From Vicinamibacterales bacterium (GTDB taxonomy: Bacteria; Acidobacteriota; Vicinamibacteria; Vicinamibacterales; UBA8438), in contig OZ244976.1 in NCBI GenBank assembly GCA_965222905.1, forward strand, positions 6,794,012 to 6,858,011: a stretch of 64,000 bases of DNA, in the 5' to 3' direction. The notes under the pieces are model-generated. The model searched no databases, was not told the DNA's origin, and worked only from the letters and a program-made list of their open reading frames with translations. A program made the translations under genes and the position numbers. Shown in pieces: positions 11,916 to 54,412 of this stretch (the stretch's first letter is position 1; each line of letters begins with the position of its first letter).

Positions 11916-12105
11916 TCACCGAAGGCGATCGGGCGCCCTCTGTGCGCCCTCATGGCCCTGGTCGGCCGCCGTGCGGTACCACCGGGCGGGCTTCCAATCG
12001 ATCGCGACGCACGCCGCGACCATGCTCGTACATGGAGCCAAGGTTGCCCTGCGCGACGGGGCTTTCCTGTCCGGCGGCGCGTCGGTACCAGCGAACCGCT
12101 TCGGC
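11916..12105 (-). pseudogene. Sel1-like repeat protein remnant
   Basis: EAVRWYRRAAGQESPVAQGNLGSMYEHGRGVRRDRLEA / RWYRTAADQGHEGAQ with a 1-nt frameshift; cut by the IS end at 12106. Confidence 0.7.
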
Positions 12106-12286
12106 GGGCGCATTCCCGATTTCCCGGTCACGCGCTCACACCCACCGGCGTCATGGCCATCCGCTGCAAACAGTTCCATCTGCCGGACTTATAGAAAGAC
12201 CGCAGGAGAAGAATCGCGTCGACGCTCTCCGGTAGCCAATAGATGGATGCGCCCTTGATGCGGAGATTGATGACGCGACGGATGGC
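12106..12286 (-). mobile_element. Orphan terminal fragment (181 bp) of the ISKra4-family IS at 52562-54140
   Basis: Identical by eye to 52562-52742, including the terminal IR GGGCGCATTCCCGATTTCCCG. Confidence 0.9.
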
Positions 12287-15186: not shown

Positions 15187-15420
15187 GGCTCAACGCTCCC
15201 GTAACCCCCGTAACCGCCGCTTGTCCAGGCCGCGCGCCAGCACCGCGCTGGCCAGGTTCTTCCTCAGTACGCATCCAGGCTCCGGCTACCCGCGGCGGCT
15301 GCGGACCGCCGCAACTGGAGCCAAGTGTCACCGTGCGCCGGTCGGCTCCCATCGGATCGCGGACCCAATGCCGACAGGCCCTTCGATGAGCCGGCGACGA
15401 GCACCGCACGCCGCGTCGCC

Positions 15421-15870
15421 GCTGCCACGTGGATGATGTCGAGTACCACGGTGGCTTCCAGGGCGTACGCGGTGGTGCCCGCGAGGCGGTCGCGATGGTC
15501 ACGCGGCGGCGCATCTCGACCCAGTAGCGCTCCGGCAGCAGGTTCAGCGCGGCATCGAGCCGATGCAAGCCGTCGTGACCGCGCCGCGCGCAGCCCAGAC
15601 CCACAACCTGCATCGTGCCGGAGGCCGTTTCGGCGTGGCTTTCGTGCTCGCGCGGCTCCGAGCACTCGACACCGCTGGTGTCCTCGGCCGGACCAGCAGC
15701 CTCTTTCGGGCTGCGTTGGTCGCGATGTCCTTGCAGGAGCTTGCGCACCAACTCCTGGCCCCGCCGGTGCAGTTCCCGTTCGAGTTCGCTCTCGCTCATC
15801 TGCCGGGCTTCGCTGGACGAGAGGAAGGCTTTGGCATCCGCGAAGACAGCATCGGCCGCTGCGCACGGGG
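15421..15870 (-). pseudogene. Internally deleted, diverged paralog of the ISKra4 transposase
   Basis: FADAKAFLSSSEARQMSESELERELHRRGQELVRKLLQGH matches the N-terminus of 13576-15186, then jumps to TVVLDIIHV. Confidence 0.8.
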
Positions 15871-21419: not shown

Positions 21420-23870
21420 CTGCCCGTGCCCCGGATGTCCGGGGCTGGACTGTAGTGAGCAGGAGGTCATCCGAACTCGTCCCGCAGTTCGAAGCCAAAG
21501 GTCATGGCAACCAGTTGAGTGTAGCCGTGCCACATCAACTGTGCGCCGGGCGGGTCGCGTTGGCGTCCGAGCCACCCGCCGAGGCGCCCGACCAGGCCGA
21601 CAGCGTCGCCGAGGCGCGTCGGCGGCGGCAGCTTGCGTGAGCGGGCGAAGGTGGCGAGCACGCGCAACTCGCCATCGGAGAACAGCAGGTCGCCCGGCAG
21701 GTCGGGCACTTCGCGCCCGAGTTGGACCATCAACTGGATGCGCCACGCGATGACCATCTTGATGGCCATGGCGCGTTCGAGCCGCTCGGCCGTGTGGTGC
21801 TGCAACTCCTCGACCTTGCAGCCGGACTTGAGCACCCGGAAGTATTCTTCGATGCGCCAGCGCCGGACGTACCATTGCAGGATGCGCATGGCGTCGTCGG
21901 CGCTGCTCACGGGCAACGTGGTCAGCAGGAACCACTCCAGCGGCTCGACCGCGGGCGGTGGTTGTTCCTCGCGCACGTGGACGACCCACAGTGCGACCGG
22001 CTCGTCGCCGGGGCAGGGCAGCGGCACCTGCTGGTAGCGCAGCGTCACGTCGGCGACCCGCTCCGCCCGGCGGTCCTTGCGGGCCTGTTTGCTGGCCTTC
22101 ACGCGCGCGCTCAGCCGCTGCACCTCGACCTTGGCGGCGCCTCGGGCCGGCGCGTTGCGCACCGTATCGAACAGACGGCGTGAGACCGTCTGCCCGTCGG
22201 GCGTCTTTTCCCTGCCGAGGACGCGGTCGGCCTTGGCGCGGACCAGCAGGTCGACCTGCTGGGCAGCCGCGCGGTGCTCGACGAACAGGTCGAGGAAATC
22301 GGCCTCGCGGTCCATCACGCACACCACGCGGGTCTCGGACAATTGTTCGGCTGCCTGCGCGCAGTCGCGCAGCCCCTCGATCCAACGGAACGACTTGCGC
22401 TCCTCGCGCGGCTTCGGGGGCGGCTCGCCTTCCGCCTCGGGATTCGGGGGCGCAGGCGCGTCGAAGGCGGCCCGCAGCACGCCCAACGCCAGCCCGTCGG
22501 GATTGACGGCCAAGGTCGTGTGCAACTCCAGGCCGCGCGCCACCGCCCCGGTCTGGTTCGAGCCGATGGCCCCCAGCCCCTGCGTCTGCCCGCGCCGGGT
22601 GAAGTTCAACCGGGTGCCGTCCTGGATGCACAGCACCGTGTCGTGCGCCTGCATCCGGCGCAGCGTCTGCTCGCGATGCGGCGCGAGGATGTTGTCGACC
22701 GTCACCGCACTGTCGGCGGGCTGGTCGATCAGCCGGTAATGGCCCTTGACCATCGCGCGGGCGCCGTGGGCGGCGCCGGTGATGGCGCGCATCGGAGACT
22801 CTGCCATTTGCTGCGCGCTCTGCACCAGCCGCGCGCTCAGACGCGCGTCGCCCAAACGCGCCCCGCCGAACTCGTGCTCCGCCCAGACCGCGGCGTCGAG
22901 ACCGTCGCCAACCGCCAGCGGCGCCAAGACCGGTGCAGGCACTGCGAGGCGGGTGTGCCACGCCGGCTCCAACGCATACATATACACCGCCTTGCGCGTT
23001 TCCGGCGCCGCGTGCGTGCGATCCTGGCGACCGCGACCGCAGGTCTCACCCACCCGAACCCAGTTCGCCGCGCGCACGCTCGCCCCCGTCTGTTCGGTCT
23101 CGTCGACGAACGTCTCCAGCAGCCAGGGGCGATAGCCATACAGACCCTCGCAGTCGTCGCCGACCGTCCGGACGACCCGGCCCAGCACGTGCGAGGCCAG
23201 GTTGCGACACATAATGCCGGGGCGCACCAGCAGCCGGCACAGTCCCAACACCCGGTGCAGGTGCGCGCGCCGGCCCGCATCGTCCCACCCGACCCAGGCG
23301 TCGCGGGACCGCAGCCGCCGCGCACTCGCCGCAAACCCGACCCCGCCCAGCCAGCCATGCGCCGAACCCACCAGATACCGCAGTTGCGGGCCGACGAACG
23401 GACCAGCCCCGCGCGGGTGCTCGTACGCCATCAGCGTGTTCCAGACCTGCCGCTGCTCGTCGGTTTCCACCAGCTCCAGGGTCAGACCCACAACCTTGCC
23501 GACCGTGTCCGGCACGTCCACCGCCGGCGCCAGCGGGTGCGGGAGCACCCGCGCCCGGCCCCCACCACCGCGGGCACCTCGACCCGCAGGCAGCGAGACG
23601 TGGCCGGCCGCCTGCAGGTCGGACAACGCCCGGCAGCAGCTCGCGCGTTGCCACCGGCCCCGTCCGTCGCGGAAATCGAACGCTTCACAGACGCGATCAG
23701 CGACTTGGCCGAGGCTGCCGACACCCTGCGAAACCGCCCCGTCCAGCACGTCGCGCAGGCGGGCGAGGTTGTCCCGTAGAATACGTGAGACCTGATTCTG
23801 AATCTCCATGCCGGCCACCGTAGCGAAGTGGCGGCAGGAAGTCCAGCAAAAAATTATGGGCCACGGGCAG
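21420..23870 (-). mobile_element. IS4-family element, 2451 bp
   Basis: IR CTGCCCGTG(C/G)CCC; 8-bp target duplication GCCTAGCT (21412-19 and 23871-78). Confidence 0.9.
21467..23818 (-). CDS. DUF4338 (DruA-like) domain fused to an IS4/Tn5-type transposase
   Basis: N-terminal half: GPQLRYLV...GFAASARRLRSRDAWVGW...RNLASHVL...LLETFVD...AANWVRVGET.GRGRQD; C-terminal half: EFGGARLGDARL, CIQDGT, MDREAD, RWRIEEYFRVLKSGC. Confidence 0.9.
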   Translation of the reverse strand: MAGMEIQNQVSRILRDNLARLRDVLDGAVSQGVGSLGQVADRVCEAFDFRDGRGRWQRASCCRALSDLQAAGHVSLPAGRGARGGGGRARVLPHPLAPAVDVPDTVGKVVGLTLELVETDEQRQVWNTLMAYEHPRGAGPFVGPQLRYLVGSAHGWLGGVGFAASARRLRSRDAWVGWDDAGRRAHLHRVLGLCRLLVRPGIMCRNLASHVLGRVVRTVGDDCEGLYGYRPWLLETFVDETEQTGASVRAANWVRVGETCGRGRQDRTHAAPETRKAVYMYALEPAWHTRLAVPAPVLAPLAVGDGLDAAVWAEHEFGGARLGDARLSARLVQSAQQMAESPMRAITGAAHGARAMVKGHYRLIDQPADSAVTVDNILAPHREQTLRRMQAHDTVLCIQDGTRLNFTRRGQTQGLGAIGSNQTGAVARGLELHTTLAVNPDGLALGVLRAAFDAPAPPNPEAEGEPPPKPREERKSFRWIEGLRDCAQAAEQLSETRVVCVMDREADFLDLFVEHRAAAQQVDLLVRAKADRVLGREKTPDGQTVSRRLFDTVRNAPARGAAKVEVQRLSARVKASKQARKDRRAERVADVTLRYQQVPLPCPGDEPVALWVVHVREEQPPPAVEPLEWFLLTTLPVSSADDAMRILQWYVRRWRIEEYFRVLKSGCKVEELQHHTAERLERAMAIKMVIAWRIQLMVQLGREVPDLPGDLLFSDGELRVLATFARSRKLPPPTRLGDAVGLVGRLGGWLGRQRDPPGAQLMWHGYTQLVAMTFGFELRDEFG

Positions 23871-24309: not shown

Positions 24310-25362
24310 ATGCTGTCCTTCCCAGTGCTGCTTGAGCACGAACTTGCGTGTGGCGTCGATGGGCACGGCGCATCCGTACGCGCTTCGGTGCTAGACGCAG
24401 CCGCAACGGTGTTGGTCTGTCGCGGCGCAGACACTCTCATTGTACCGGCGCCAGATCCCAAAACGCTCGCTGAAGTATCGGCTGGAATTGAAACCATGCC
24501 CGCCCCCCGACGATCGATAGTGCGTATCGTCGATACGAACGGATCGGTGTTACAGCAGGTGCGGTCATTTTTGGACCCATTGGTAGCCCAAGCGATGAAA
24601 TGGCCTGAGAACGCATTCGTCAATTTCGCCGAGGGTTTCTTGTACCAAGTGGCCCTCGCACAGTCGCACAGAGCCGGGATCGTGTCCTCTAAGATCAACA
24701 TCATGCGTGAATTCGTGCCGAGAATTAGTACGGCCTCATTCCGCGGAGAAGCCCGGTACCGCCTTGCAGAACTAATCGGCGTGATCGCCACGTACGAACC
24801 TATCGAAATACCGCACGCACTTCTAGCGACGCCAGTTGATCGTGCACTCGCTTCCCGAATCGACGAGATCCTGGAAGTCGCCGAGTTCAAGCATGTCGTT
24901 GCGGCATCAGGTTGGGTCGGGGTCGCCAGAAAGCCTCGGCTAGCAGTGGCGCGATTGTGGCGCCACTTCCGCGCGCTGTTGTCGAAACCACAGGTCAGTA
25001 CAACGCTTGGCTTCGCGAGTGCCGTTGGTGACATCGGAGGTGCTTCAGTTGTCGGCACGGCAATCTCTAAGATGAACGATCTCGTAAGTCGAGGCGAGAA
25101 GCGAGAGTTCGCGCCGCCCTTCGTTCCACTCGGTTCTGCGCAACTCGGAATCTGTCGCATGGCCCTCTTGAGCCGACATCCAGATGCCGTGCCACCGCCT
25201 GGCTCCATCATGCTCTTCGAAGGCACACGTGGCGGTCGGACTGGCGCCTCGTGGCTGAGCGTTGGAGAGGAATCCAAACTATTCGATGAAGAGAAGACGG
25301 CGTTGGCTACCAGTTTGTCTGCAGTGCAGAAGGTTAGGGAAGTTAAGCACCGCTTTTTCTGA
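24310..25362 (+). CDS. Unknown protein, 350 aa, lower GC than its surroundings
   Basis: Long ORF with A/T-richer codon usage; no motif recognised. Confidence 0.65.
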   Translation: MLSFPVLLEHELACGVDGHGASVRASVLDAAATVLVCRGADTLIVPAPDPKTLAEVSAGIETMPAPRRSIVRIVDTNGSVLQQVRSFLDPLVAQAMKWPENAFVNFAEGFLYQVALAQSHRAGIVSSKINIMREFVPRISTASFRGEARYRLAELIGVIATYEPIEIPHALLATPVDRALASRIDEILEVAEFKHVVAASGWVGVARKPRLAVARLWRHFRALLSKPQVSTTLGFASAVGDIGGASVVGTAISKMNDLVSRGEKREFAPPFVPLGSAQLGICRMALLSRHPDAVPPPGSIMLFEGTRGGRTGASWLSVGEESKLFDEEKTALATSLSAVQKVREVKHRFF

Positions 25363-25437
25363 GTGCTCGATCTAACCGGGGCTGGAGCCGACGGCGCGCA
25401 AGCAATCACGGGTGCCGCGGCTCAGCCCTTGCCGTTA

Positions 25438-25526
25438 GAACACTGCGCGACACTAACTGGTTATCTCCTTGCGGCAGCGGCTCATTCTCGGCGCGATGGG
25501 GGCGCGGCAGCGATGCGCCCGGATCT
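25438..25526 (+). mobile_element. Second, partial copy of the ISAzo13-type MITE or IS left end
   Basis: About 12 mismatches in 89 nt against the reverse complement of 13110-13198; preceded by TTA. Confidence 0.8.
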
Positions 25527-25529
25527 GCC

Positions 25530-25760
25530 GGTCTCGCGTGGACGCCGACCGATCAATGTTTCGTGGGATGACGCGGTTGCGTATGCGGAGTGGTTGTCCG
25601 GTCAGACTGGCAAAGAATACCGACTGCCGACCGAGTCGGAGTGGGAATACGCGGCGAGAGCCGCGACGATGTCGGTCTATAGCTGGGGCCAATACAGTGG
25701 TGATTCTCGGGCTAATTGTGTAACCTGCGGCAGCAGCTGGGGTCCTGAGCGAACGGTGCC
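25530..25760 (+). pseudogene. Formylglycine-generating enzyme (SUMF1/EgtB/PvdO) domain fragment
   Basis: [39 protein letters not shown]...ANC..C. Confidence 0.85.
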
Positions 25761-25883
25761 ACCGGATCGTTCGCGCAGGGCTCGGAACGCGTTCCCGGGT
25801 AGTCGGGCCTCTCTGGCGGCTTCCTCGTCCGTCAGGTTCTGTCGCTCCAGTTTGGCCTCGATGAGGCGCTTCAGTCGGTCGGT

Positions 25884-26044
25884 CCTTGCCCGATCTGGTG
25901 CGTGAGACTCCGCGCGCTCGCCTCGCAGAGACCCGATTTAAGATGCTCATGAGGAAGGCGGGTAAAGAAGGCGTTGAAGGCATGCGGGGGCTTCTCCCGG
26001 ACATCGTCAGCGAGACCGTTCGCAAGACCCTATTCGGCGTCTGA
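25884..26044 (+). pseudogene. C-terminal remnant of a DUF2321 protein (copy of 32973-33461)
   Basis: [52 protein letters not shown]. Confidence 0.85.
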
Positions 26045-26062
26045 TCGTGCACTGGGAGACGA

Positions 26063-26548
26063 GTGATGATGAGGATGGAGATCGCCATCACGCAAGCCGC
26101 GGGCTTGCGCCGGGTGGCTGCCGATCTCGACCGTGTTTGGGTCGGCCACCTGAAGGGTGGTGATCGGACGACCCCCGACGAGTTTCTCGGGAGTATGCTC
26201 GCCGCCCCTGTCTTGCGCGCTCTGGCGGCAGAGCTGGCCTTGAAGGCCGTCGCCATCAAGACGACGGGGGCGCACAAGCGGGGGCACGACCTCCTCAAGC
26301 TGTTCGACGCGCTGGACCAGAAGACGCAAACGGCCATCGAGCAGCAGCGCGAGGGCGTGGTCGAGCGGGTTGTGCATGGGTCTGTGCGGTCCATCCTCGC
26401 CAAGCACAAAGGCGACTTCACCGCTTCGCGGTATGTCGGGGAGATGCCGCCCGGCTCGAAGCCGACGTTTGCGTACGGGGATGACTTAGACGTAGCCCTT
26501 CAAGACCTGATCGCCGTGTTCGAGGAACTGCCCAGCGGCGCGCGTTGA
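26063..26548 (+). CDS. HEPN-like domain protein (copy A)
   Basis: LRALAAELALKA...GHDLLKLFDAL...FTASRY pattern. Confidence 0.7.
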   Translation: MMMRMEIAITQAAGLRRVAADLDRVWVGHLKGGDRTTPDEFLGSMLAAPVLRALAAELALKAVAIKTTGAHKRGHDLLKLFDALDQKTQTAIEQQREGVVERVVHGSVRSILAKHKGDFTASRYVGEMPPGSKPTFAYGDDLDVALQDLIAVFEELPSGAR

Positions 26549-26562
26549 GCAAGATTCGCCGG

Positions 26563-26583
26563 ATTTCAAACTGAGACACTACC
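26563..26583 (+). mobile_element. IS1-family terminal sequence
   Basis: ATTTCAAACTGAGACACTACC; reverse complement starts GGTAGTG (GGnnnTG signature); near-copies at 32417 and 34115. Confidence 0.7.
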
Positions 26584-27300
26584 CCGCCTGGGGGTGCCGG
26601 GTTCATCCCCGTCGCGATTCCGCCCATTTTGTCCCGGCTCCAGAGCCTGTCGGCGCCGCCTTGGGTCTCGCTCCCCCATCCGGGTTCGACTTCCGCTATC
26701 CAGCCCAGCGGGCTCTCCGGGCGCGGGTTGTAGCTGATGGAGATCGAGGTTCCCTGCTCTTCGAACCCTTCGGCCTGGTGCATCAGCAGCCGCCGCATAC
26801 GCACATCGATCTGCAGGCCGCTGCGGTGCTCCGTCAGCAGCAAACCCGTGCCGACGTCGATTCCTGCGCCCTGTTCGGCGTCGCCGGCGTCCCTTCGGAT
26901 GCCGACCTCGACGCTCGGTCTCAGGTTTACCCACCGCCCCATGGTCCAGGTTCGGGATCCCTCGATGGCGCTGCGTATCCGGCTCACGTCGGCCCGGCTG
27001 GCGGCCAGGCGCCCCTCAGGGGTCTCGACGCCGTCGATGCTCGTCACGGCCTGCAGTACATCGGTCTTGAGCGTAAGGCCCACGATCGAGTCGTTCCCGG
27101 TGAGCTGTCCCTGGGCGCCTGCTGCGTGCATGCGCATCGTCATCGGGCTCGTCAGGGCCGCTCCGCGTTCCGGGGTCAGCCTGAGCCGCCCTCGTCCGTA
27201 GCCGCTCACGCCCCATACGGTCGTTCGCTCGTTGACCCGGTAGCCGATCCACGGGTAGATGCCGACGACCGAGGTGTGGGTCGCTCCGGTTCCGCGTCTC
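26584..27300 (-). pseudogene. Autotransporter beta-barrel domain fragment
   Basis: GIYPWIGY...VWGVSGYGRG...LRPSVEVGIRRDAGDAEQGAGIDVG...PLGWIAEVEPGWG; cut at the IS1 end. Confidence 0.8.
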
Positions 27301-27339
27301 TGGTAGGCCGACCTGCTCGGACTCAATGCCGCACCCGCG

Positions 27340-27830
27340 CCGCCGCGGACGATGAAAGGTGGCGAGCACGGCCGCGAGGTCCGAGATCCCGAACGGCCGC
27401 GCCTGCCCTCGATTCCGATCGCTGGCGGTCGGCCGATAACCGGCCAGCACCCGGGCCGTGCGCTCGCCGGCGGGAGCGGGCTGCCCGGCCAGCTTCGCGC
27501 GGAAGCACGCCGCGGCGACCGCCATCGCCGCGCTCGACGAGGCGCGCCCGGCATCGTGCAGCTCGGCGAGATAGGCCGCCAGGGTCACGTCGTGGAGCTC
27601 GCGCCCGTCGAGCCAGGCGTCGAGCCGCCGAAGCGCCCCGGCGTAGGCCCGTCGGGTGTTCGGGCTGACTCCGCCGAACCCATCTGGAAAACCCGCGCAG
27701 CGTGTCGAGGAGTGGCGGCGTGCCCGGTGTCGTGGAGCTCGGCGACGTAGGCGGCGAGGGTCGGATCATCGAGCGGGCGCCCGTCGAGCTACCCTACCCG
27801 TCGCGGCGGCATAGCGACGCTGGCGTACTG
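27340..27830 (-). pseudogene. Two tandem remnants of a tyrosine-recombinase N-terminal (SAM-like) domain
   Basis: SPNTRRAYAGALRRLDAWLDGRELHDVTLAAYLAELHDAG and LDGRPLDDPTLAAYVAELHDTG. Confidence 0.65.
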
Positions 27831-27849
27831 GCATGCGTCGCTGCCGGTC

Positions 27850-28000
27850 CGGAACTACTCGCCGACGGGCCCCGGCGTGGGGCTACGGCGGCTCGGGTCC
27901 GGCCCAGCTCGCGGTGACCGATGAGGCGACGGCCGAGCAGTGCTACCAGAGGTTCAAATGGAGCGTCATCTCGCCAATCGCGGCGGACCCGAGACGTCCT
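27850..28000 (+). pseudogene. DUF6166-like fragment
   Basis: YSPTG..WGYGGSGPAQLA...YQRFK. Confidence 0.55.
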
Positions 28001-28417
28001 TACGCCATGAAGACCGACGCCATCGTCGGGATCAAGGTCACCGAGACCTTCTCGAAGGCATCTGGCCGTCTCGGAAAACGGTTTTTACGTTGGTAGGAGA
28101 CGAACGGTTCGATGCGTCGATGAAGGACCAGCTCGCAGCACGGCCACGAGAATGGCACCAAGGCGATTGCTCGTACCGACGATGCTCCAACGTTGCCGCC
28201 GACGCCGACGTCACCTCCGGTGAGCGTCCGTACCAACAGGGACGTGATCGTCTCTGCGCGAGGCTCCGATGGCCGCGCAAGACGAACCGGGCGTCCGGCC
28301 GGTCCTTGCGCTTGCCGAGCGGCTTTGCCTCGTGGTGACCCGAAGAAGGACCGTGAGCCAATCGGCGAGCTTCATCCCATTCAGAGTGCGAACGGCAATG
28401 GCGATCCTGACGGTCTG

Positions 28418-29332
28418 TCATAGGAACCCGAGCAATTCCATGAAATCCATTTCGGAGAGAATTTGAATAGGAACACCCTCTGCAATCAGACGTTCGGCTT
28501 TGCGATGTTTCGCACTCTTGCCATGTCTGGCCAGCCTGCGGACATCGGGTTCGCCAGCCACCAACAACGTGGTTTTCCCACTAACGGTATCCGCAACCGA
28601 ACAGCCGGCCGCGGCGGCCAGATCCGCTGCCAGAGAATGAACAAAGCTCAAAGCCCCAGCGAACACAACCACTTCACCAGCTAAGGGGCCGCCGGAAACA
28701 CCGTCGCGCTTGACTGTCGTCGACGCCCCGGATGCACAATCAGCAACTGTAGTCAAGGGTCTCCCAACCACGGTAAGAGCATCGAATAGCCGACGGGTGC
28801 TGATGCCCAATGCCTCCATGGCCGCCAAGAGAACCTTGCCAGCCGCCCTGGCGTCCGCCAATGCATCGTGATGTTTTAAATCGTAGGAAAGAAACTCGCA
28901 CACTTCGTGGAGTCCGTAACCGGAACGTGCAAGCTCGGGCCACGCACGACGGGCCAAGACCGCCGAGTCCAGCCACGTACAGGTAGGCAGAACAACCTGC
29001 CAACGCGCAGAGGTCTGTGTCAGGGCCACCCGATCGAACGGTGTATGAGAAACAATCACACGCCCCGAAAGAAGACCGCAAATCCTGCTCGACATCCGAC
29101 CCCACGTGGGCGCGTCGCGAACTGCAGCTTCATCGATTCCGTGAATATCGACATGCTGGGCAGAAAAAACATCCTCCGGATTCACCAGTGTTGAATACTC
29201 CGACTTCACGATGCCGTTGTGGAAATCGACGATGCCAATGGAGCAAATTGACGAAGGGTTCGTATTCGCCGTCTCAACATCAACAGCGACGAAAGCGTTT
29301 GAAGAGATACGAGACATGTTTTTCAGCACCAT
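28418..29332 (-). CDS. DnaQ-like DEDDh 3'-5' exonuclease with a C-terminal BRCT domain
   Basis: VAVDVET, SHTPFD, LDS, HHDALADA; VVFAGAL...VSGKTTLLVAG...KHRKA..L...ILSE. Confidence 0.9.
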   Translation of the reverse strand: MVLKNMSRISSNAFVAVDVETANTNPSSICSIGIVDFHNGIVKSEYSTLVNPEDVFSAQHVDIHGIDEAAVRDAPTWGRMSSRICGLLSGRVIVSHTPFDRVALTQTSARWQVVLPTCTWLDSAVLARRAWPELARSGYGLHEVCEFLSYDLKHHDALADARAAGKVLLAAMEALGISTRRLFDALTVVGRPLTTVADCASGASTTVKRDGVSGGPLAGEVVVFAGALSFVHSLAADLAAAAGCSVADTVSGKTTLLVAGEPDVRRLARHGKSAKHRKAERLIAEGVPIQILSEMDFMELLGFL

Positions 29333-30026
29333 GAATTACACCCGGAGACTACAACCACCATTCATCCAGGGTCCCAAAGCCGCAACTGTGGAGCCGCGGC
29401 CGATACGGACGTAGTATACGTGATCTGAATTCAGCGTGTACACGTGCATGCACCACACACACTACACGGCGCAGATCTGCGGGCGCCCGCGTAGCGCGTC
29501 GCGCTTCTTGCCGGACCGGAGCGGCGTCGTGAGCGGTCAGATCCCGAGACTATCACGTCGTTGTTGGCCAGTGGAGGCTCCGGTCCGTCTGTCAAGCAAG
29601 ACATAGTGCAACTTCGAAGCCTGACGAAACCGATTGAGGACGGCGGCGTTCCGCGCTGGCGAAGGACCGGACCTCGGACTTGGCACTCGCGCGGCGCGCT
29701 CCTCGGTTACCCCGACTTGGTAGACAGGATCACGTCGAGTCCTTGCAGAACCACTGCGACGAAAGTGAACGTTCCGGCGGTCTGACCCGCCAGCGCACGG
29801 AGAAGTCGGAATGCGGAGGCGACACCGGGATCCCGGGTCCGGCTCGAGGCATAGTCGTCCGCGGTGAAGCCGCTTGGCACGAAGGAACTCCGAACCGATA
29901 CGAGAGCCCATTGCCTGTCGCGTTCGCTCAGCGATGGCCGACGGCAGCGACTCGTTCGTGGGTGGGGTGGCACCGTGGCGTGGAGTTCGGTGCGGACACC
30001 ACTCCTCCTCGCTGCTCCCGTTCTCG

Positions 30027-30400
30027 TCATGTGGCTGGGCGGTGTTGTTCGATCTGTCGGATCAACGCCCGCGCCCACGCGAGCGTTGGCGTCGCCGGCA
30101 ACCTGATGCCGCCCTTCGTAATGCTCGCGACGTGTCTTGTCGTGCCGTGACTGTTGTCGAGCACGTCGATGGACCTGAGCGACGCAGCCGTTCCGGAAGG
30201 GTTCTTCTGGGCCGCTGGACCACCGCCGCGTGATCTCCGGAAGCGGGACGTCATGTCCGGTGCCCGACGTGACGCGTCGACGCACGCGCTCGATGTTGAT
30301 CTCGGGTCCTGTCGTGCCAATGAACACCACCTTGACGTCGTACCCGTTCGAGGCTGCTGTGCGTACGATCCTGGGCCGCGAACGTCCCGAATAGGTACCC
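30027..30400 (-). pseudogene. Zeta-toxin/P-loop kinase family fragment, frameshifted
   Basis: FEGTYSG...GYDVKVVFIGT..PEINIERVRRRV..GHDVP..ITRRW / IDVLDNS; Walker A region missing. Confidence 0.7.
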
Positions 30401-30409
30401 TCGAAACCT

Positions 30410-30473
30410 GCGTCACTCCGGCCAAGGCCATGGCCTTCGCCACGCGGTTGGAACCCGGCTCCGAGCGAAGGAC
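30410..30473. repeat. Direct repeat of about 65 bp of the XRE-HTH gene start (other copy 31592-31658)
   Basis: GCCATGGCCTTCGCCACGCGGTTGGAACCCGG(C/T)TCCGAGCGAAGGAC occurs at both sites. Confidence 0.8.
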
Positions 30474-31081
30474 GTAATAGGAGGGCGACAGGCAGCGGGG
30501 AACGCCGGGAAGGCGGAGCACGATGAGAGAGACGAGAGACTGCGGGCGCCGGGCTCCGGGCTACAGCAGGCGCTGCAGGAAGCGGGGGCGTGCCGGCATG
30601 AGGGGCACGAGGTCGAGTGGCTCGCCGCGCCCCTGGCCGGCGGACCAGGCCCGATCGGGCGCCGGGCGGGCGCCAACGGCGAGGGCGGCGGAAGGGAACC
30701 GCGGGCCGAGAGGACCGGCGCAAGCCCGGGGGGCGCAGGCGCAGTGGTGAGCGGGGTGTTTACCGACGGGTGCGCAATCCCGAACCCGGGACCGGGCTCT
30801 TTCTGCTGCTTCCCGCCGGCCTCGTTGCGGCCGCGGCCTCTCCGCATTTTCAACGCGGTCGCGTCTCTACTGCCGTCCTGCCGGCTTCCTCCCCACCCGC
30901 GTCCTCTCGCTCGGTCTCGTCCCCGGCGTCCTGCTCCGGCCGCGCCTCTCGCAGCCACCCCGCGCGTGGGCCGGGCGGCCGTCGCCGACCCCGTTCCGCT
31001 CGTCGTAGTCTTGCAGGATCCGGTCGCCGATCGCTCTCGTGGAGCTCGCTGTCCACGCGTGCCGCCCCGGTGGTTCGACCC

Positions 31082-31450
31082 CTACTCGAGCGGCTCGCTC
31101 GTTGCGTGCGCTCTCCCCGCCGCCTCGTCGATCAGCGCCGGCGTCACCGTCTGCTGCTCCTTCATGTCGGCGAGCGTTCTTGCGACCCGCAGCACCCGGA
31201 TTGCGGCCTCGGCGCCTTCCCTCTCCCTCTGCCGCTCGAGTTCGCGGGCTGCTTTCGCTGTCAGTCTCGCGCCTGCGTAGACCCTGTCGGCCTGTGCTGT
31301 GCCGTTGCGGCCGCCCGGCCCGTAGCGCGCCTCCTGCATCTGTTCGGCCTCGCCGATCCGTCGCTGCAGCGTTTGCTCGCGCACGTCCCTCGCTGTCCGT
31401 CCCGGGGGCGTTGTTTCCCTCTCCCGGCGGCCGACCCAGGCGCCGATCTG
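31082..31450 (-). pseudogene. C-terminal remnant of a YifB/ComM (Mg-chelatase-like) ATPase
   Basis: IRVLRVARTLADM...VTPALIDEAAGR. Confidence 0.55.
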
Positions 31451-31459
31451 GAAGATGCG

Positions 31460-31682
31460 TCCGATCCTCGATACGGCAACCGAAGTAGGGGGCGAACTTC
31501 CAGGCGTTCTCGACGGTAATGGTGCGATACCTCCCGCGGGCGACATCGCTGACGTAGGGCTGCGTCAGGCGGAGCGCCTTCGCGAGGGTCACCTGCGTCA
31601 CTTTCGCCAGCGCCATGGCCTTCGCCACGCGGTTGGAACCCGGTTCCGAGCGAAGGACCGCGAGCTGCTGCTCGGTGAGCAT
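31460..31682 (-). CDS. XRE/Cro-C1 HTH regulator, 3' end fused to unrelated sequence
   Basis: MLTEQQLAVLRSEPGSNRVAKAMALAKVTQVTLAKALRLTQPYVSDVARGRY..ITVENAWKFAPYFGCRIED. Confidence 0.75.
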
Positions 31683-32416
31683 CTCGAATGGAACTATACG
31701 TGTGAGACCTTCGCCACGTTCTCGACCGCATGCCGCGGGCGGGGCCAGCGGAGACTGCCGCCGTCAAGGTGGGAGAACATGCGGTTCGGGCTCGGCGACC
31801 GGCGTCACCGCTCGTCGTCGAGGCTGACTCGAGGCGCGCAGCAGGATTGGTGGTCTGCTCGGCCGGCGCGACGCCGGCCAGGCTCCGGTTCAGGCCCGTC
31901 TTTGCCTTCACGTTCGACCCGGGCGCCTCGTTGGTTCCCCGCGCGTGCGGGCGTTGCTCCCGGCAACTGGCAACCAGTTGCAAGTTGCCGGGAGGTCCAT
32001 CCCCGCGCGGGCGGGGTGCGCCTGTAACCTATTGGTACTGCGATAGTTAGCGGGTTCTAGTGTGCTGTCGGACCATTCAGTCCCACATCCCATTCTTCTT
32101 GGTTGCACGGCCGCGTGGGCTTTGTGCTCGTTCCGGTCGAGCTGACCGTTGGGTTGGCTTGTTCCTGAGCTTCTTGACCGCAACTCCTCGCGGTCCTGGT
32201 TGGACCGGGCCCAGGCCCTTTCCCGCGGCCCGGTCCTCGTTGGGTTACCGTTCGGTCCGGTCGCCGCCTTGCCAGTGACCGTGTGAGTCGTCACCGGCAA
32301 TCCGATCTCCACCTGACTCGTGGGTGCCTGCAGAGCCCCCACCGCCCGGGCGCCGTCCACAGGGACTGCCGCATGGAGCCGTTCGAACTCCGGCGGCGAC
32401 GCGTAGCTGGTTTTCC

Positions 32417-32437
32417 GGTAGTGTCCCAGTTTGAAAT
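32417..32437 (-). mobile_element. IS1-family terminal sequence
   Basis: GGTAGTGTCCCAGTTTGAAAT, about 30 nt after the HEPN copy B stop. Confidence 0.7.
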
Positions 32438-32467
32438 CCGGCGCGGCTAACCCGGCACGGACCTTGC

Positions 32468-32953
32468 TCAACGCGCGCCGCTGGGCAGTTCCTCGAACAC
32501 GGCGATCAGGTCTTGAAGGGCTACGTCCAAGTCAACCCCGTACGCAAACGTCGGCTTTGAACCGGGCGGCATCTCCCCGACATACCGCGAATCTTCGAAG
32601 TCGGTCTTGTGCTTGGCGAGGATGGACCGCACAGACCCATGCACAACCCGCTCGACCACGCCCTTGCGCTGCTGCTCGATGGCCGTTTGCGTCTTCTGGT
32701 CCAGCGCGTCGAACAGCTTGAGGAGGTCGTGCCCCCACTTGTGCGACCCCATCGTCTTGATGGCGACGGCCTTCAAGGCCAGCTCTGCAGCCAGAGCGCG
32801 CAAGACAGGGGCGGCGAGCATACTCCCAAGGAATTCTTCGGGGGTCGTCCGATCACCACCCTCCAGTTGGCCGGCCCAAACACGGTCGAGATCGGCAGCC
32901 ACCCGGCGCAAGCCCACGGCTTGCGTGATGGCGATCTCCATCCTCATCATCAT
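32468..32953 (-). CDS. HEPN-like domain protein (copy B)
   Basis: About 90% identical by eye to 26063-26548; AAELALKA, GHDLLKLF, FEDSRY. Confidence 0.7.
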   Translation of the reverse strand: MMMRMEIAITQAVGLRRVAADLDRVWAGQLEGGDRTTPEEFLGSMLAAPVLRALAAELALKAVAIKTMGSHKWGHDLLKLFDALDQKTQTAIEQQRKGVVERVVHGSVRSILAKHKTDFEDSRYVGEMPPGSKPTFAYGVDLDVALQDLIAVFEELPSGAR

Positions 32954-32972
32954 CACTCGTCCCAGTGCCCGA

Positions 32973-33461
32973 TCAGACGCCGAACAGAGTCTTGCGGACG
33001 GTCTCGCTGACGATGTCCGTGAGAAGCCCCCGCATGCCTTCAACGCCTTCTCTACCCGCCTTCTTCATGAGCTTCTTGAACCGGGTTTCTGCGAGCCGCG
33101 CGCGCGGATTCTCACGCACCAGATCGGGCAAGGTCTTCTTCAGGGACTCCTTCTCATCATCCGACAGAGCATCCATCTCGTCAGCCATTTCTTCGGCGGC
33201 GCGGAGGGACGTTGCCGTCCAAGGGAACGGCTCCCCGCACTTGTAGCAGAAGGCGGGTGCCGTGTACCTGCTGAAACGGATGACGTCCGGCACGTGGTGT
33301 GTCCCGCGGATCTCGGTCTCGCAGGCCGGGCACGCCGTGATCGTTCGCGAGCCGCACTTGTCACAGTGATCCTGATTGCTGATCGGATAGTCGCGCGCGC
33401 TGGAGTTCGCCACATGCCCGTTCTCGCAGATCTGGGCGAGGTCGTAGTGACTGTCGTCCAT
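32973..33461 (-). CDS. DUF2321 zinc-ribbon-like protein
   Basis: YDLAQICENGH, HCDKCGS.TITACPAC...IRG, PAFCYKCGEPFPWT, LPDL...PRARLA..RFKK. Confidence 0.85.
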   Translation of the reverse strand: MDDSHYDLAQICENGHVANSSARDYPISNQDHCDKCGSRTITACPACETEIRGTHHVPDVIRFSRYTAPAFCYKCGEPFPWTATSLRAAEEMADEMDALSDDEKESLKKTLPDLVRENPRARLAETRFKKLMKKAGREGVEGMRGLLTDIVSETVRKTLFGV

Positions 33462-33709
33462 GCCGCCTCTCGTCGGAGCCCGCCGGATGCGGACCCGGTT
33501 CTGTGTCCCGGTGGATTCGTCAAGGGGAGAGCGCTGAACGCCGGGGTCGTCAGGTCTCGGGTCACGGTTGCGTCATCGCGGCCGTGTACCCCCATCCAGT
33601 GTATCAGATCCCGCCGCAGACCCCAGGGCTTGCGGTTCCGCACGATCGGCGAGACTGGCACTGGGGGTACGGCACGGCGCGCCGTGCTACCCTGATCTGA
33701 ATGATCTTC

Positions 33710-33870
33710 CGATCGTTGGCCGAATCCACAAGACGTTGCGGGTGACCCCGGCGATGGCCGCGGGTGTGACGAGCGAGCTTCGGGATGTCGAGTGGATCGC
33801 GGAGCTGGTGGCGGCACGGGATCCGAAGCCGGGTCCGCGGGGGCCGTACCGGAAGACGAAGCAGCCATGA
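33710..33870 (+). pseudogene. C-terminal remnant of an IS1-family transposase
   Basis: RIHKTLRVTPAMAAGVTSELRDVEWIAELV...KPGPRGPYRK. Confidence 0.75.
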
Positions 33871-34073
33871 GTAAGACTGACAGCCAGAAGCTCGACCTTG
33901 AGAAACTCCTTCAAGACGGGTACGCCAAGTACGCCGCCGTTACAGAAGACAAGTTCGGCTCGCCGAAGACCCAACTGGCCCCAGTCAGGCGATTCTGCGA
34001 CTTCTTGCTGAACGGAACCGTCCCACACCCCGACATTCCCGTTCCTGGTCCGCCGCCGAAGTTGCGGCGCTGA
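33867..34073 (+). CDS. 68-aa passenger ORF inside the IS1-family remnant
   Basis: ATG overlaps the transposase stop (ATGA); followed by the IS end at 34115. Confidence 0.5.
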   Translation: MSKTDSQKLDLEKLLQDGYAKYAAVTEDKFGSPKTQLAPVRRFCDFLLNGTVPHPDIPVPGPPPKLRR

Positions 34074-34114
34074 GACGCCAGTGCCGACGAGTGACCGCGC
34101 CTGATCAGCGCGAG

Positions 34115-34135
34115 ATTTCGAACTGAGACATTACC
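34115..34135 (+). mobile_element. IS1-family terminal sequence
   Basis: ATTTCGAACTGAGACATTACC. Confidence 0.7.
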
Positions 34136-34247
34136 GGTTTTCCCGGATCGTTCTCGTGATTCCGCGCGCGCTGTATGGCTCGTTGGCGCGCTCGGTCGTC
34201 CGTCGGTGGCCGGGGATCTTCCTGATCGAGCAGGGTGCCCGTGCCCT

Positions 34248-34982
34248 CTACGGCATCACGCGTTCGACCATCTCCAGCCGCGTTCGGGTGCTTTGTCCCG
34301 GGACGGTTCTTCCTTCCACCAGCCGACGGGCCAGCCGCCGGATCTCGCTCAGTCTCGTCGGCCGGTAATTCAGCTGCTCGACGCTGACGTTGATGTGCCG
34401 GTTCGGCGTCGGTGACTCCTGCTCGTGCACGTGTCCGTGGACGTTGATCGCGCCGTGCGGCACCTGCAGCAAAGGCACGTGGGTCAGCACGAGCGGCGGG
34501 TCGCCCGCCGCGTACAGCGTCACCGCTGTGCGGTCGATCTCGAACGGGCGGATCTGATTGACCGGGTCGACGTCGTGATTGCCGAGCACGAGCCACTTCG
34601 CCCCCGGCGCCTTCTGCCACCATTCTTGGTGGTGCGCCAGGGCCTCGCCGTCGACGGTGACGTCGCCCAGGCAGATGATGGTCTCGCCCTCGGCCACCTG
34701 TTCGTACCAGGCCTCCATCATCGCCGTGTCGGCTGCGGCAGTCGTCCGGAACGGTCTTCCGAAGACGGTGCGCGAGTGTTCGTGCCCCAAGTGCAGGTCC
34801 GACCAGATCCAGGTCGTCGCGTCGGCTTCGGTCCACCCCGCTGGGCCGATCGTCTGCGCCCGCCGGATCAGGGCCTCGGTCTGCCGCCGGTTCACCATCG
34901 GGCCTCCAGGCGGCAGCAGCGACTGCTGCAGTTCGTCGACGTAGAGCGCGTGCAGCCGCTCGGCCGCCGTTTCTACTGCCAT
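34248..34982 (-). CDS. Calcineurin-like metallophosphoesterase with an N-terminal extension
   Basis: SDLHLGH, LGDV, GNHD, LTHVP, VHGHVH, NVSVEQLNYRP. Confidence 0.9.
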   Translation of the reverse strand: MAVETAAERLHALYVDELQQSLLPPGGPMVNRRQTEALIRRAQTIGPAGWTEADATTWIWSDLHLGHEHSRTVFGRPFRTTAAADTAMMEAWYEQVAEGETIICLGDVTVDGEALAHHQEWWQKAPGAKWLVLGNHDVDPVNQIRPFEIDRTAVTLYAAGDPPLVLTHVPLLQVPHGAINVHGHVHEQESPTPNRHINVSVEQLNYRPTRLSEIRRLARRLVEGRTVPGQSTRTRLEMVERVMP

Positions 34983-35393
34983 CGTCTCTCCGCTGTTTCC
35001 CTTCCCCGGGACGGGGACATTCGTCGCGTAGGTGTTCACGCCTTCTCCGGTCAGGACCGACGGCCGTGCGCCGCGACCTGATTATCTCTTGGCGCGCCTG
35101 CTCGGGTTCGTGCCGTGCTCGCGCTTGCGCCTGCGTGCTCAGCCCAACGCGTTGGCCTTGTTGTGCCCTCGGTCCCGCGGCTGCAGGCGGTCCCGCGGCT
35201 GACCGTTTCTCGGCGGGGGCACGGTCAGCCTGCCGCTGGCTTGCTCCTGCCCGCACCCTTGCGGGCGCTGCACGACGTTAGCGTCGACCTTGCGACGTTT
35301 CTCTCGCTTGCCAGTTCCGTATACGATCTGCCCCAGACGCCGTCTGAGAGGCTCAATCCTTGAGCCCGGACGGCCCGGAAATCATCCTCGCGC

Positions 35394-37388
35394 ATGACCA
35401 ACGGCGACCTGCACTGGATTGCGAACTACATCTGGGGGATCGCCGACGAGGTCCTCCGCGACGTCTACGTCCGCGGCAAGTACCGCGACATCATCCTGCC
35501 GATGATTGTCCTGCGGCGCCTGGATGCCGTGCTCGAGGAACGCCACCGGGACGTCCTCGACATGAGCGCGTACCTTGATGAGCTCGGCGTGGTTGACAAG
35601 GACGCCACTCTCCGGCAGGCGGCGGGCCAGGCCTTCTACAACACCTCGAAGTTCACCCTGAGCGATCTACGCATTTGCGCCAACCGGCAGCAGCTCAAGA
35701 CCGACTTTGAGGCCTACCTTGATGGGTTCTCGCTCAATGTTCAGGACATCCTCGAGAACTTCGAGTTCCGTACCCATATCTCGAAGCTCTCCAAGGCCGA
35801 CGCGTTGGGCACGCTGATCGAGAAGCTCACCTCGCCCGACGTCAACCTGGGCCCAGACCCGGTGAAGAACGCCGACGGCTCCGTCCGGTATCCCGGACTC
35901 GACAACCACGGCATGGGGTCGATCTTCGAGGAACTCCTCCGGCGCTTCAACGAGGAGAACAACGAGGAAGCGGGTGAGCACTGGACGCCGCGCGACGCCG
36001 TGCGGCTGATGGCGAAGCTCGTCTTCCTGCCCGTCGCTGACGAGATCAAGTCTGGCACCTACCTGCTCTACGACGGCGCCTGCGGCTCTGGCGGCATGCT
36101 GACCGTCGGCGAGGAAACGCTGCAGCAGCTTGCGACCGAGCACGGCAAGGATGTCTCGACGCACCTGTACGGCCAGGAGATCAACGCCGAGACCTACGCC
36201 ATCTGCAAGGCGGACCTGCTGTTGAAGGGCGAGGGCGAGGCGGCCGACAACATCGTCGGCGGTCCCGAGCACTCGACGCTCGCCAACGACGCCTTCCCGT
36301 CGCGCGAGTTCGACTTCATGCTCTCGAACCCGCCCTACGGCAAGACGTGGAAGGTCGACCTGGAACGCATGGGCGGCAAGAAGGAGATGTACGACCCGCG
36401 CTTCGTCGTCGAGCATGCGGGCGATCCTGAGTACTCGCTGGTCACGCGCTCCAGCGACGGCCAGATGCTCTTCCTTGCCAACAAGCTCTCGAAGATGAAG
36501 CAGGGCACGCTGCTCGGCAGCCGCATCGCCGAGGTCCACAACGGCAGCTCGCTGTTCACGGGCGACGCCGGGCAGGGCGAGAGCAACATCCGCCGCTGGA
36601 TCATCGAGAACGATTGGCTGGAGGCGATCGTTGCCCTCCCGCTGAACATGTTCTACAACACCGGCATCGCCACCTACGTCTGGGTGCTCACCAACCGCAA
36701 GCCCGAGCACCGCCGCGGCAAGGTGCAGTTGATAGACGCGACGAAGTGGTTCCGGCCGCTCCGCAAGAACCTGGGCAAGAAGAACTGCGAGTTCGGCGAC
36801 GAGGACATCGCCCGCATCTGCGACACGTTCCTCGCCTTCGAGGAGACCGAGCAGAGCAGAATCTTCGACAACGCCGCCTTCGGCTACTGGAAGGTGACCG
36901 TCGAGCGGCCCCTGCGAATCGAGGCCGCCGCCCCGAACCGCGTCTACAACGCGGCCGAGATCAAGGCTCTGAAGGAGACCGGCAAGCGGAGCGAGGACGC
37001 GCCGGCGATCATCCGGAAGGTCCACAAGCGGGGGACGGAGGCCGATTCGCTGCGCGGCCTGTTTGCCGTCACCGTCGACGGCCGGGCCGTCGTAGTGGAG
37101 TACGAGCCGGACACCGACCTGCGCGACACGGAGCAGATCCCACTGCAGGAGGACGGCGGCATCGAGGCGTTCCTGCGGCGCGAAGTGCTGCCGTACGCCG
37201 CTGACGCGTGGTACCAGGCCGACAGCGTGAAGGTCGGCTATGAGATCAGCTTCACGCGCTACTTCTACAAGCCGAAACCGATGCGGTCTCTGGCGGAGAT
37301 CCGGGCTGATATTCTGGCGTTGGAGCAAGAGACAGAGGGACTGCTGGCGCAGATTCTGGGCCACGGTGAAGCGGCCGCGACGCGATGA
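35394..37388 (+). CDS. hsdM: Type I restriction-modification N6-adenine methyltransferase subunit M
   Basis: YDGACGSGGML (SAM binding), NPPYG (motif IV), GEHWTPRDAV, FYNTGIATYVW. Confidence 0.95.
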   Translation: MTNGDLHWIANYIWGIADEVLRDVYVRGKYRDIILPMIVLRRLDAVLEERHRDVLDMSAYLDELGVVDKDATLRQAAGQAFYNTSKFTLSDLRICANRQQLKTDFEAYLDGFSLNVQDILENFEFRTHISKLSKADALGTLIEKLTSPDVNLGPDPVKNADGSVRYPGLDNHGMGSIFEELLRRFNEENNEEAGEHWTPRDAVRLMAKLVFLPVADEIKSGTYLLYDGACGSGGMLTVGEETLQQLATEHGKDVSTHLYGQEINAETYAICKADLLLKGEGEAADNIVGGPEHSTLANDAFPSREFDFMLSNPPYGKTWKVDLERMGGKKEMYDPRFVVEHAGDPEYSLVTRSSDGQMLFLANKLSKMKQGTLLGSRIAEVHNGSSLFTGDAGQGESNIRRWIIENDWLEAIVALPLNMFYNTGIATYVWVLTNRKPEHRRGKVQLIDATKWFRPLRKNLGKKNCEFGDEDIARICDTFLAFEETEQSRIFDNAAFGYWKVTVERPLRIEAAAPNRVYNAAEIKALKETGKRSEDAPAIIRKVHKRGTEADSLRGLFAVTVDGRAVVVEYEPDTDLRDTEQIPLQEDGGIEAFLRREVLPYAADAWYQADSVKVGYEISFTRYFYKPKPMRSLAEIRADILALEQETEGLLAQILGHGEAAATR

Positions 37389-54140: not shown

Positions 54141-54412
54141 GGCGGACCGGCTGCCCGGCCCGGCTCGCCTGTCGTGTGACTGCAGCAACCCGCTCGCCGA
54201 CAACGGTGTCCAGGGTCTGGGCGTGCGTTGCGGGCGACGCCGCCACGAACATCAGACCCGCTACGAGCGGCCCGAATACGAAGGCACGAACCTGACTCGG
54301 CAAGCCAGGAGCCTGCGCCGTAGAACGCAACGGAGCGAGTTCTGCTGCGCAGGCTCCTGGGCCGGTGGGGGCTGGGGCCGAACGCGGCGCCCTGGCGACG
54401 GGTTTGGCGGCG

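Follow-up and report, generated by a model that had tools for sequence, protein, structure and literature searches.

In the 64,000-nucleotide (nt) stretch of the Vicinamibacterales contig OZ244976.1 analysed here (the window, to whose positions all coordinates refer), a gene for a DUF2321 zinc-ribbon protein and a gene for a HEPN protein occur side by side in two inverted copies. These are likely to be partly decayed cassettes of the IS1 insertion sequence (IS) family that carry both genes as cargo, a cargo of the defence type and not an obligate toxin–antitoxin pair. The better preserved of the two, copy B, spans positions 32417–34135 and is a non-autonomous IS1-family element of the mobile insertion cassette type with a two-gene cargo operon. 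Cassettes of this kind are known, and the combination of DUF2321 with a HEPN-T protein as their cargo is previously undescribed. A preliminary description of the locus, drawn from the letters of the sequence and a list of open reading frames (ORFs) only, had proposed a mobile toxin–antitoxin or anti-phage module.

Element ends and relatives of the two copies

The IS1 family is recognized by GGnnnTG ends and by target-site duplications of 8–9 bp, the signature given in ISfinder, and copy B has both. The element is 1,719 bp long and is bracketed by terminal inverted repeats of 25–28 nt that begin GGTAGTG and GGTAATG, with an 8-bp duplication directly flanking it on either side (Table 1). The end motif occurs a third time, in diverged form, at 34111–34135, where its orientation is opposite to that at 32417; the 24-nt motif, without a match in 100 shuffles, would not be expected to arise by chance. 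Read from the 34135 end, the element contains a 68-aa ORF, a 47-codon transposase remnant, a leader of about 240 nt, DUF2321 and HEPN. A metatranscriptome contig that holds a relative breaks exactly at 32416/32417, the end of the element. That the end motif is instead the attachment site, derived from a tRNA, of the P4-type integrase encoded downstream in loci L002 and L082 was also considered, and was rejected on the motif's inverted pairing and the 8-bp duplications.

Relatives on metagenome contigs that have the architecture of copy B provide two further independent target-site duplications, GATCCCCG in L226 and CGCCTGTC in L223. The latter is a 4.7-kb element with an intact 309-aa transposase (PF03400, IS1 transposase, 31.1 bits against a gathering score of 24.1) and the same gene pair; besides DUF2321 and HEPN, its cargo includes genes for a Clp-like SDH protease and, next to that, two ORFs of unknown kind. 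Because full-length relatives that retain a probable IS1-type transposase intact carry the pair, it evidently spreads as transposon cargo. The cassette or close relatives of it are present in sequencing runs of at least seven studies, and metatranscriptome assemblies hold fragments of relatives of both genes at 90–97% identity, which amount to weak evidence of transcription because DNA carry-over is possible.

IS elements with passenger genes have been defined as transporter IS, and their transposase-less derivatives as mobile insertion cassettes (PMC3129680). Copy B combines IS ends and passenger genes with the lack of a functional transposase, and it resembles IS1 transporter IS and mobile insertion cassettes, as in IS231/MIC231, in its GGnnnTG ends, its 8-bp duplications and a cargo that does not serve transposition; the full-length relative L223 has a probable IS1-type DDE transposase. 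It differs from them in the DUF2321 and HEPN-T cargo, which is undescribed in such elements. In addition, the L223 transposase is a distant member of the IS1 family, below the NCBIfam cut-off, and mobilization of copy B in trans is only putative.

Table 1. Coordinates of the two cassette copies and their parts
Feature	Position	Strand	Evidence
Copy A DUF2321 C-terminal remnant, 52 codons, about residues 109–162	25884–26044 (ORF 25886–26044)	+	PF10083 positions 109–156, E 8e-11
Copy A intact HEPN-T-like ORF, 161 aa	26063–26548	+	PF05168 26.4 bits, gathering score 22
Copy A terminal inverted repeat, HEPN-proximal, CCGGATTTCAAACTGAGACACTACC	26559–26583	+	homology ends at 26583
Target-site duplication GGTTTTCC, left	32409–32416		recurs at 34136–34143
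Copy B terminal inverted repeat beside HEPN, GGTAGTGTCCCAGTTTGAAATCCGGCGC	32417–32444	+	agrees with the opposite end at 23/28 positions
Copy B HEPN-T-like ORF, 160 aa from second ATG	32468–32950	-	PF05168 24.8 bits; AlphaFold pLDDT 83.5
Copy B full DUF2321, 162 aa	32973–33461	-	PF10083 E 1e-60, residues 6–158
Conserved non-coding leader upstream of DUF2321	33462–33700	-	alignment and BLAST extents in related elements
Remnant of IS1-family transposase C terminus, 47 codons	33721–33861	+	tblastn with L223 transposase: 53% identity, E 5e-10
ORF of 68 aa that overlaps the transposase stop	33867–34073	+	no family match; shared only with L001
Copy B terminal inverted repeat distal to HEPN, GGTAATGTCTCAGTTCGAAATCTCGCGC (minus-strand reading)	34108–34135	-	end-motif match
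Target-site duplication GGTTTTCC, right	34136–34143		repeats 32409–32416

The leader is conserved over 100–240 nt upstream of DUF2321 in copy B and in L222–L226 and L232, and in the window it holds the GC-rich palindrome GCACGGCGCGCCGTGC. A search of positions 25000–35000 against Rfam, leader included, gave no match; the leader has no consensus promoter, and a promoter and terminator scan was uninformative.

Copies A and B were found by the repeat finder as two inverted arm pairs, 26064–26558/32458–32952 (495 nt, 95% complementary) and 25884–26057/32960–33133 (174 nt, 92% complementary). Aligned globally, the copies are 94.1% identical (657 matches and 41 mismatches, with 21 gap columns), where the preliminary description had put the diverged inverted copies at 25884–26583 (+) and 32417–33133 (-) at about 90% by eye. 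Homology begins at 25884 and extends in both copies exactly to ...GACACTACC, stopping at 26583 and 32417. The gene content was also described correctly: DUF2321 is full in copy B and a C-terminal remnant in copy A, given that only profile positions 109–156 match there, and a HEPN-like ORF of about 160 aa, scoring above the PF05168 gathering score, is open in both, some 20 nt past DUF2321 (17–29 nt from stop to start, a range set by the choice of ATG). Both copies do terminate in an IS1-type end, as had been proposed. On the minus strand, a long ORF without Pfam match (26418–27554) enters the terminal repeat of copy A so that its final codons are the repeat itself, and this is probably a gene interrupted by copy A.

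Comparison with other assemblies indicates that copies A and B are independent insertions of diverged sublineages and not an in-place duplication. Copy A has 98.7% DNA identity to L081, a contig of another metagenome that is truncated at a different point, whose counterpart for copy B is L001 (98.4% identity), from a Vicinamibacterales assembly with the same left flank; L224 matches copy B at 89%. In the protein tree, copy B pairs with L001 (support 95/84), and the nearest row of copy A is L081 (99% identity), in a join that the tree leaves without resolution. As the copies come from different sublineages, each must have inserted on its own. Positions 25884–26583 are thus the HEPN-proximal end, about 700 bp, of a second element from a sublineage other than that of copy B, which inserted separately in reverse orientation and of which the other half has since been lost.

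Two arms of about 700 bp inverted around a 5.8-kb mosaic segment could also arise by duplication or inversion in place, or mark a composite transposon moving the intervening 5.8 kb. We regard this as extremely unlikely, since for each arm a copy from some other assembly is closer than the opposite arm (98.7% and 98.4% against 94%). The target duplication of copy B is moreover intact on both flanks, which means that no recombination between A and B has occurred since B inserted. Finally, an outer end is missing from copy A and the HEPN-proximal ends of both copies point inward, so that no outer ends are available and composite transposition is excluded.

The assembly L001 joins window segments 12102–12286, 15263–15823, 34319–35037 and 52562–54141, which lie tens of kilobases apart in the window. 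These joins suggest that the surroundings of the island have been extensively rearranged by IS activity or duplicated in segments.

The preliminary description took the open HEPN frames of the two copies as a sign of purifying selection. The HEPN pair of the window does not by itself demonstrate this, as its 24 substitutions give a ratio of non-synonymous to synonymous substitution rates (dN/dS) of 0.59 (p = 0.23 against neutrality). Purifying selection is seen across the wider clade, where the median dN/dS is 0.37 over 166 HEPN pairs and 0.24 over 34 DUF2321 pairs. Both genes are constrained, HEPN only moderately. Between the DUF2321 remnant of copy A and its counterpart in copy B, dN/dS is 0.19 (p = 0.007), a value that probably reflects divergence before truncation.

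The HEPN and DUF2321 proteins

The HEPN fold is supported by both profile and structure searches. The ORFs of both copies match PF05168 above its gathering score, and the AlphaFold model, which is all-helical with a mean predicted local distance difference test (pLDDT) of 83.5, retrieves only HEPN structures as its top Foldseek matches: 1ufb (TT1696), 4nqf, 2hsb (AF0298), 3o10 (a sacsin domain) and 8xeh (a complex of HEPN with a minimal nucleotidyltransferase, MNT). The best of these is 1ufb (probability 1.00, E 8.8e-3, template-modelling (TM) scores 0.51/0.62). Searched against PDB sequences, the family profile gave chance homeodomain matches only, and NCBIfam returned nothing for either the HEPN or the DUF2321 protein. 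In the family alignment, E56, H74, R122 and Y123 are invariant and K60 nearly so (E56x3K60). No histidine follows R122 at a distance of 4–6 residues, and the canonical Rx4-6H motif, which the preliminary description had called not evident, is indeed absent.

HEPN-T proteins of the AF0298 type have been described as lacking the motif histidine and having a second, strongly conserved histidine further towards the N terminus together with an Ex3[KR] motif; this second histidine could form an alternative active site, and PF05168 proteins cluster with restriction–modification operons (Anantharaman et al. 2013, PMC3710099). On the evidence of alignment and predicted model, the window protein belongs to this AF0298-type variant of HEPN-T, and the missing Rx4-6H motif marks a described subtype and is no argument against membership of the HEPN superfamily. 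Like AF0298 (2hsb) and TT1696 (1ufb), it has a small, stand-alone, all-helical fold, the Ex3K motif, a conserved arginine without a histidine 4–6 residues on and, on the N-terminal side of that residue, a second invariant histidine, and its homologues likewise cluster near restriction–modification operons, both in that survey and here. It differs from them in matching no PDB chain at the sequence level, in TM scores of only 0.5–0.6 and in having no nucleotidyltransferase partner. The family is also small, with 75 clusters found mostly in metagenome-assembled genomes of Acidobacteriota and Gemmatimonadota. H74, R122 and E56 are predicted to be able to build an alternative RNase or ligand-binding site.

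Two other HEPN systems invite comparison. HEPN domains act as toxins in HEPN–MNT and other systems (PMC3710099), and the window pair resembles the former in that a small HEPN gene lies beside a small partner gene on mobile or defence-related DNA. Unlike in HEPN–MNT, however, the partner is a zinc-ribbon protein (a Pfam scan found no nucleotidyltransferase domain by HEPN, the neighbour being DUF2321), Rx4-6H is absent and either gene may be missing beside an intact partner. HEPN nucleases of the PrrC/RloC type, which are embedded in restriction–modification loci, have a parallel in the HEPN homologues that lie directly downstream of hsdR or MmeI-like genes, whereas the window protein has no ABC-ATPase domain, is only 160 aa long and is IS cargo outside a restriction–modification operon.

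The DUF2321 protein of copy B is predicted, from alignment and model (pLDDT 87), to form a double zinc ribbon (C12/H16, C33xxC36, C44xxC47 and C72xxC75) followed by a C-terminal helical domain, with zinc ligands that constitute four invariant CxxC pairs or equivalents. Foldseek searches of the PDB with this model gave nothing significant, the matches to the zinc ribbons of NrdR and TniQ being weak (probability at most 0.57). The protein matches PHROG 16447, annotated as function unknown, and a full-text literature search for DUF2321 returned only an unrelated paper. A metagenome scan confirmed 467 relatives, and a viral-contig scan confirmed 58, on viral or prophage contigs.

In loci L084–L221 and L228, 48 tightly linked co-directional neighbours of DUF2321 include, by Pfam, three Mrr_cat, two or three HNH and two DNA methyltransferase genes and one each for MmeI, HsdR and TnsD–TniQ; these raw counts, taken without a background comparison, point to a neighbourhood of nucleases and restriction–modification genes. 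DUF2321 thereby gains a first contextual handle, as a gene of prophage-like contigs and of defence islands that frequently adjoins nucleases, and the interest of the locus is mainly as an entry point to this family. DUF2321 might be a widespread zinc-ribbon sensor or regulator with interchangeable nuclease effectors, HEPN-T here and Mrr or HNH elsewhere, the combinations making up a family of two-gene defence modules, one of which an IS1-family transposon would have picked up and spread in the present lineage. This broader proposal is distinctly unlikely at present; if true, it would define a new compact defence family.

Reach of the pairing and possible functions

Seen from the HEPN side, DUF2321 adjoins HEPN in only one of 80 genome loci, L001. 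HEPN and the element end occur without DUF2321 in L002, L003, L005, L010, L081 and L083. Neither element end nor DUF2321 is found in L004 and L006–L008, where HEPN follows hsdR by about 40 nt (at about 4001–4567 in L007 and L008), or in L009, where it follows an MmeI-like gene. The hsdR–HEPN loci are type I restriction–modification operons of Gemmatimonadota and of one assembly labelled Gammaproteobacteria, and further homologues lie near Type ISP, MmeI or HsdR genes (L082, L222 and L083). In the alphaproteobacterial relatives, which are more distant, the gene stands alone, in island contexts that vary. Clustering of the neighbours of all 80 loci identified hsdR as the sole recurrent one, in an analysis with much noise from the antisense ORFs of high-GC DNA.

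From the DUF2321 side, 137 other loci were fetched and tested, among which none has a window-type HEPN and no neighbour family is conserved. The pair is confined to a DUF2321 clade of at least 80% identity that travels on the IS1-type element. It is intact in copy B and L001, L222, L223 and L224, with L222 the sole case of an intact pair from which both element ends are gone, and the two genes overlap start to stop in L222, L223 and L231. Elsewhere in the clade DUF2321 is intact and HEPN is not: an IS66 insertion or a frameshift breaks HEPN in L225/L226, another IS interrupts it in L231 and an internal deletion has removed it from L232, leaving DUF2321 and the element end. At 74% (L227) and 70% (L228–L230) DUF2321 identity there is no HEPN. 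A 214-aa gene downstream of DUF2321 in L227 was considered and set aside as low-complexity, unrelated to HEPN and probably no gene. Judged by these surveys, the pairing is a property of one element lineage and not a general association. Since both genes transpose together, finding them adjacent in different contexts does not independently attest to functional coupling; the conserved adjacency seen here reflects co-transposition.

These patterns bear directly on a type II toxin–antitoxin system, in which HEPN would be an RNase toxin and DUF2321 the antitoxin, stabilizing the element or the host replicon. The arrangement would suit one: two small co-directional genes, overlapping in some loci, ride on mobile DNA, HEPN toxins are known from HEPN–MNT and other systems (PMC3710099) and the full DUF2321 of copy B could cover the orphan HEPN of copy A in trans. 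In such a system, however, the pairing is expected to be conserved and no toxin to be maintained apart from its antitoxin, whereas both genes recur solo. Intact HEPN stands without an adjacent DUF2321 in L002–L011, L081, L083 and all more distant loci, L225/L226, L231, L232 and L227 have an intact DUF2321 and a HEPN gene that is broken or deleted, and to these add the 137 DUF2321 loci without a window-type HEPN. The missing Rx4-6H motif, the lack of a recognizable DNA-binding antitoxin fold in DUF2321 and the empty PADLOC result argue in the same direction, and we consider a toxin–antitoxin function very unlikely. A strict system in particular is counted against by the loss patterns, whichever gene is taken as the toxin, because each recurs intact without the other. 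Loss of a partner without lethality is compatible either with a sensor–effector defence pair or with two unlinked accessory genes.

The second of these options holds that DUF2321 and HEPN are functionally unrelated passengers captured successively by the same IS1-type element. The association of HEPN with the element end appears to be the older one, as L010 and L083 (56–57% identity) have the end and no DUF2321; no conserved partner of either family is seen elsewhere, loss of one gene or the other is frequent and synonymous divergence (dS) between copy B and L224 is 0.10 for HEPN and 0.26 for DUF2321. The spacing of the genes is nevertheless tight or overlapping, L222 keeps an intact pair after losing both element ends, both genes are under purifying selection, and other DUF2321 genes tightly adjoin nucleases, suggesting nuclease-type effectors as recurrent partners. 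On balance, unlinked passengers seem somewhat unlikely.

As to the first option, that the two genes cooperate as a defence-type pair is a possibility that we hold tentatively, at less than even confidence. DUF2321 would then be the zinc-ribbon partner of HEPN, acting as a sensor or regulator. Under either option, the cargo probably stems from a defence or conflict gene pool, to judge from the neighbourhoods of its homologues, and the pair would most likely be a dispensable sensor–effector pair or two separate accessory genes, and not an addictive toxin–antitoxin. Of the module first proposed, its mobility and the company of its homologues among restriction–modification and nuclease genes stand, and the obligate toxin–antitoxin relation falls away.

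Several results weigh against our reading of the copies as IS1-family cassettes with defence-type cargo. No autonomous transposase with matching ends lies within the window, and the L223 transposase, for which IS1 is the best NCBIfam family, yet reaches 57 bits against a curated cut-off of 100. The PF05168 match is weak and covers 41 residues only (residues 54–95), the Foldseek E-values for HEPN are modest even for the best match, and neither the HEPN nor the DUF2321 protein matches any PADLOC model (PADLOC-DB 2.0). The uncalibrated neighbour counts for DUF2321 belong here as well. Finally, only 4 of about 11 pair contexts are intact, which indicates that selection on the pair is weak.

The cassettes also show small conflict-type genes moving between phyla: HEPN proteins of 76–81% identity occur in Acidobacteriota, Gemmatimonadota and an assembly labelled Gammaproteobacteria, on IS1-type elements and their transposase-less derivatives.

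Surroundings in the window

Beyond copy B, a PdeM-like metallophosphoesterase gene (34248–35039, minus strand) is followed by a type I hsdM gene (35394–37388, plus strand), about 1.3 kb from the end of the element. With these genes immediately past copy B, the cassette is inserted at the edge of a restriction–modification locus.

Between the arms, a gene at 28418–29332 (minus strand) encodes a DnaQ-like exonuclease of the DEDDh type, whose tail is a weak BRCT match and which resembles the PADLOC candidate system protein PDC-S48 (E 6e-36), and a small ORF (27833–28096, plus strand) matches DUF6166 (E 9e-9). The mosaic segment also contains a 68-nt direct repeat (91%), at 30406–30473 and 31591–31658, which represents the N terminus of an XRE-type helix-turn-helix gene twice. 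On the far side of copy A, positions 21467–23818 (minus strand) encode a 783-aa IS4-family transposase with a 350-aa N-terminal extension before the IS4 core (NCBIfam IS4_3, residues 359–775).

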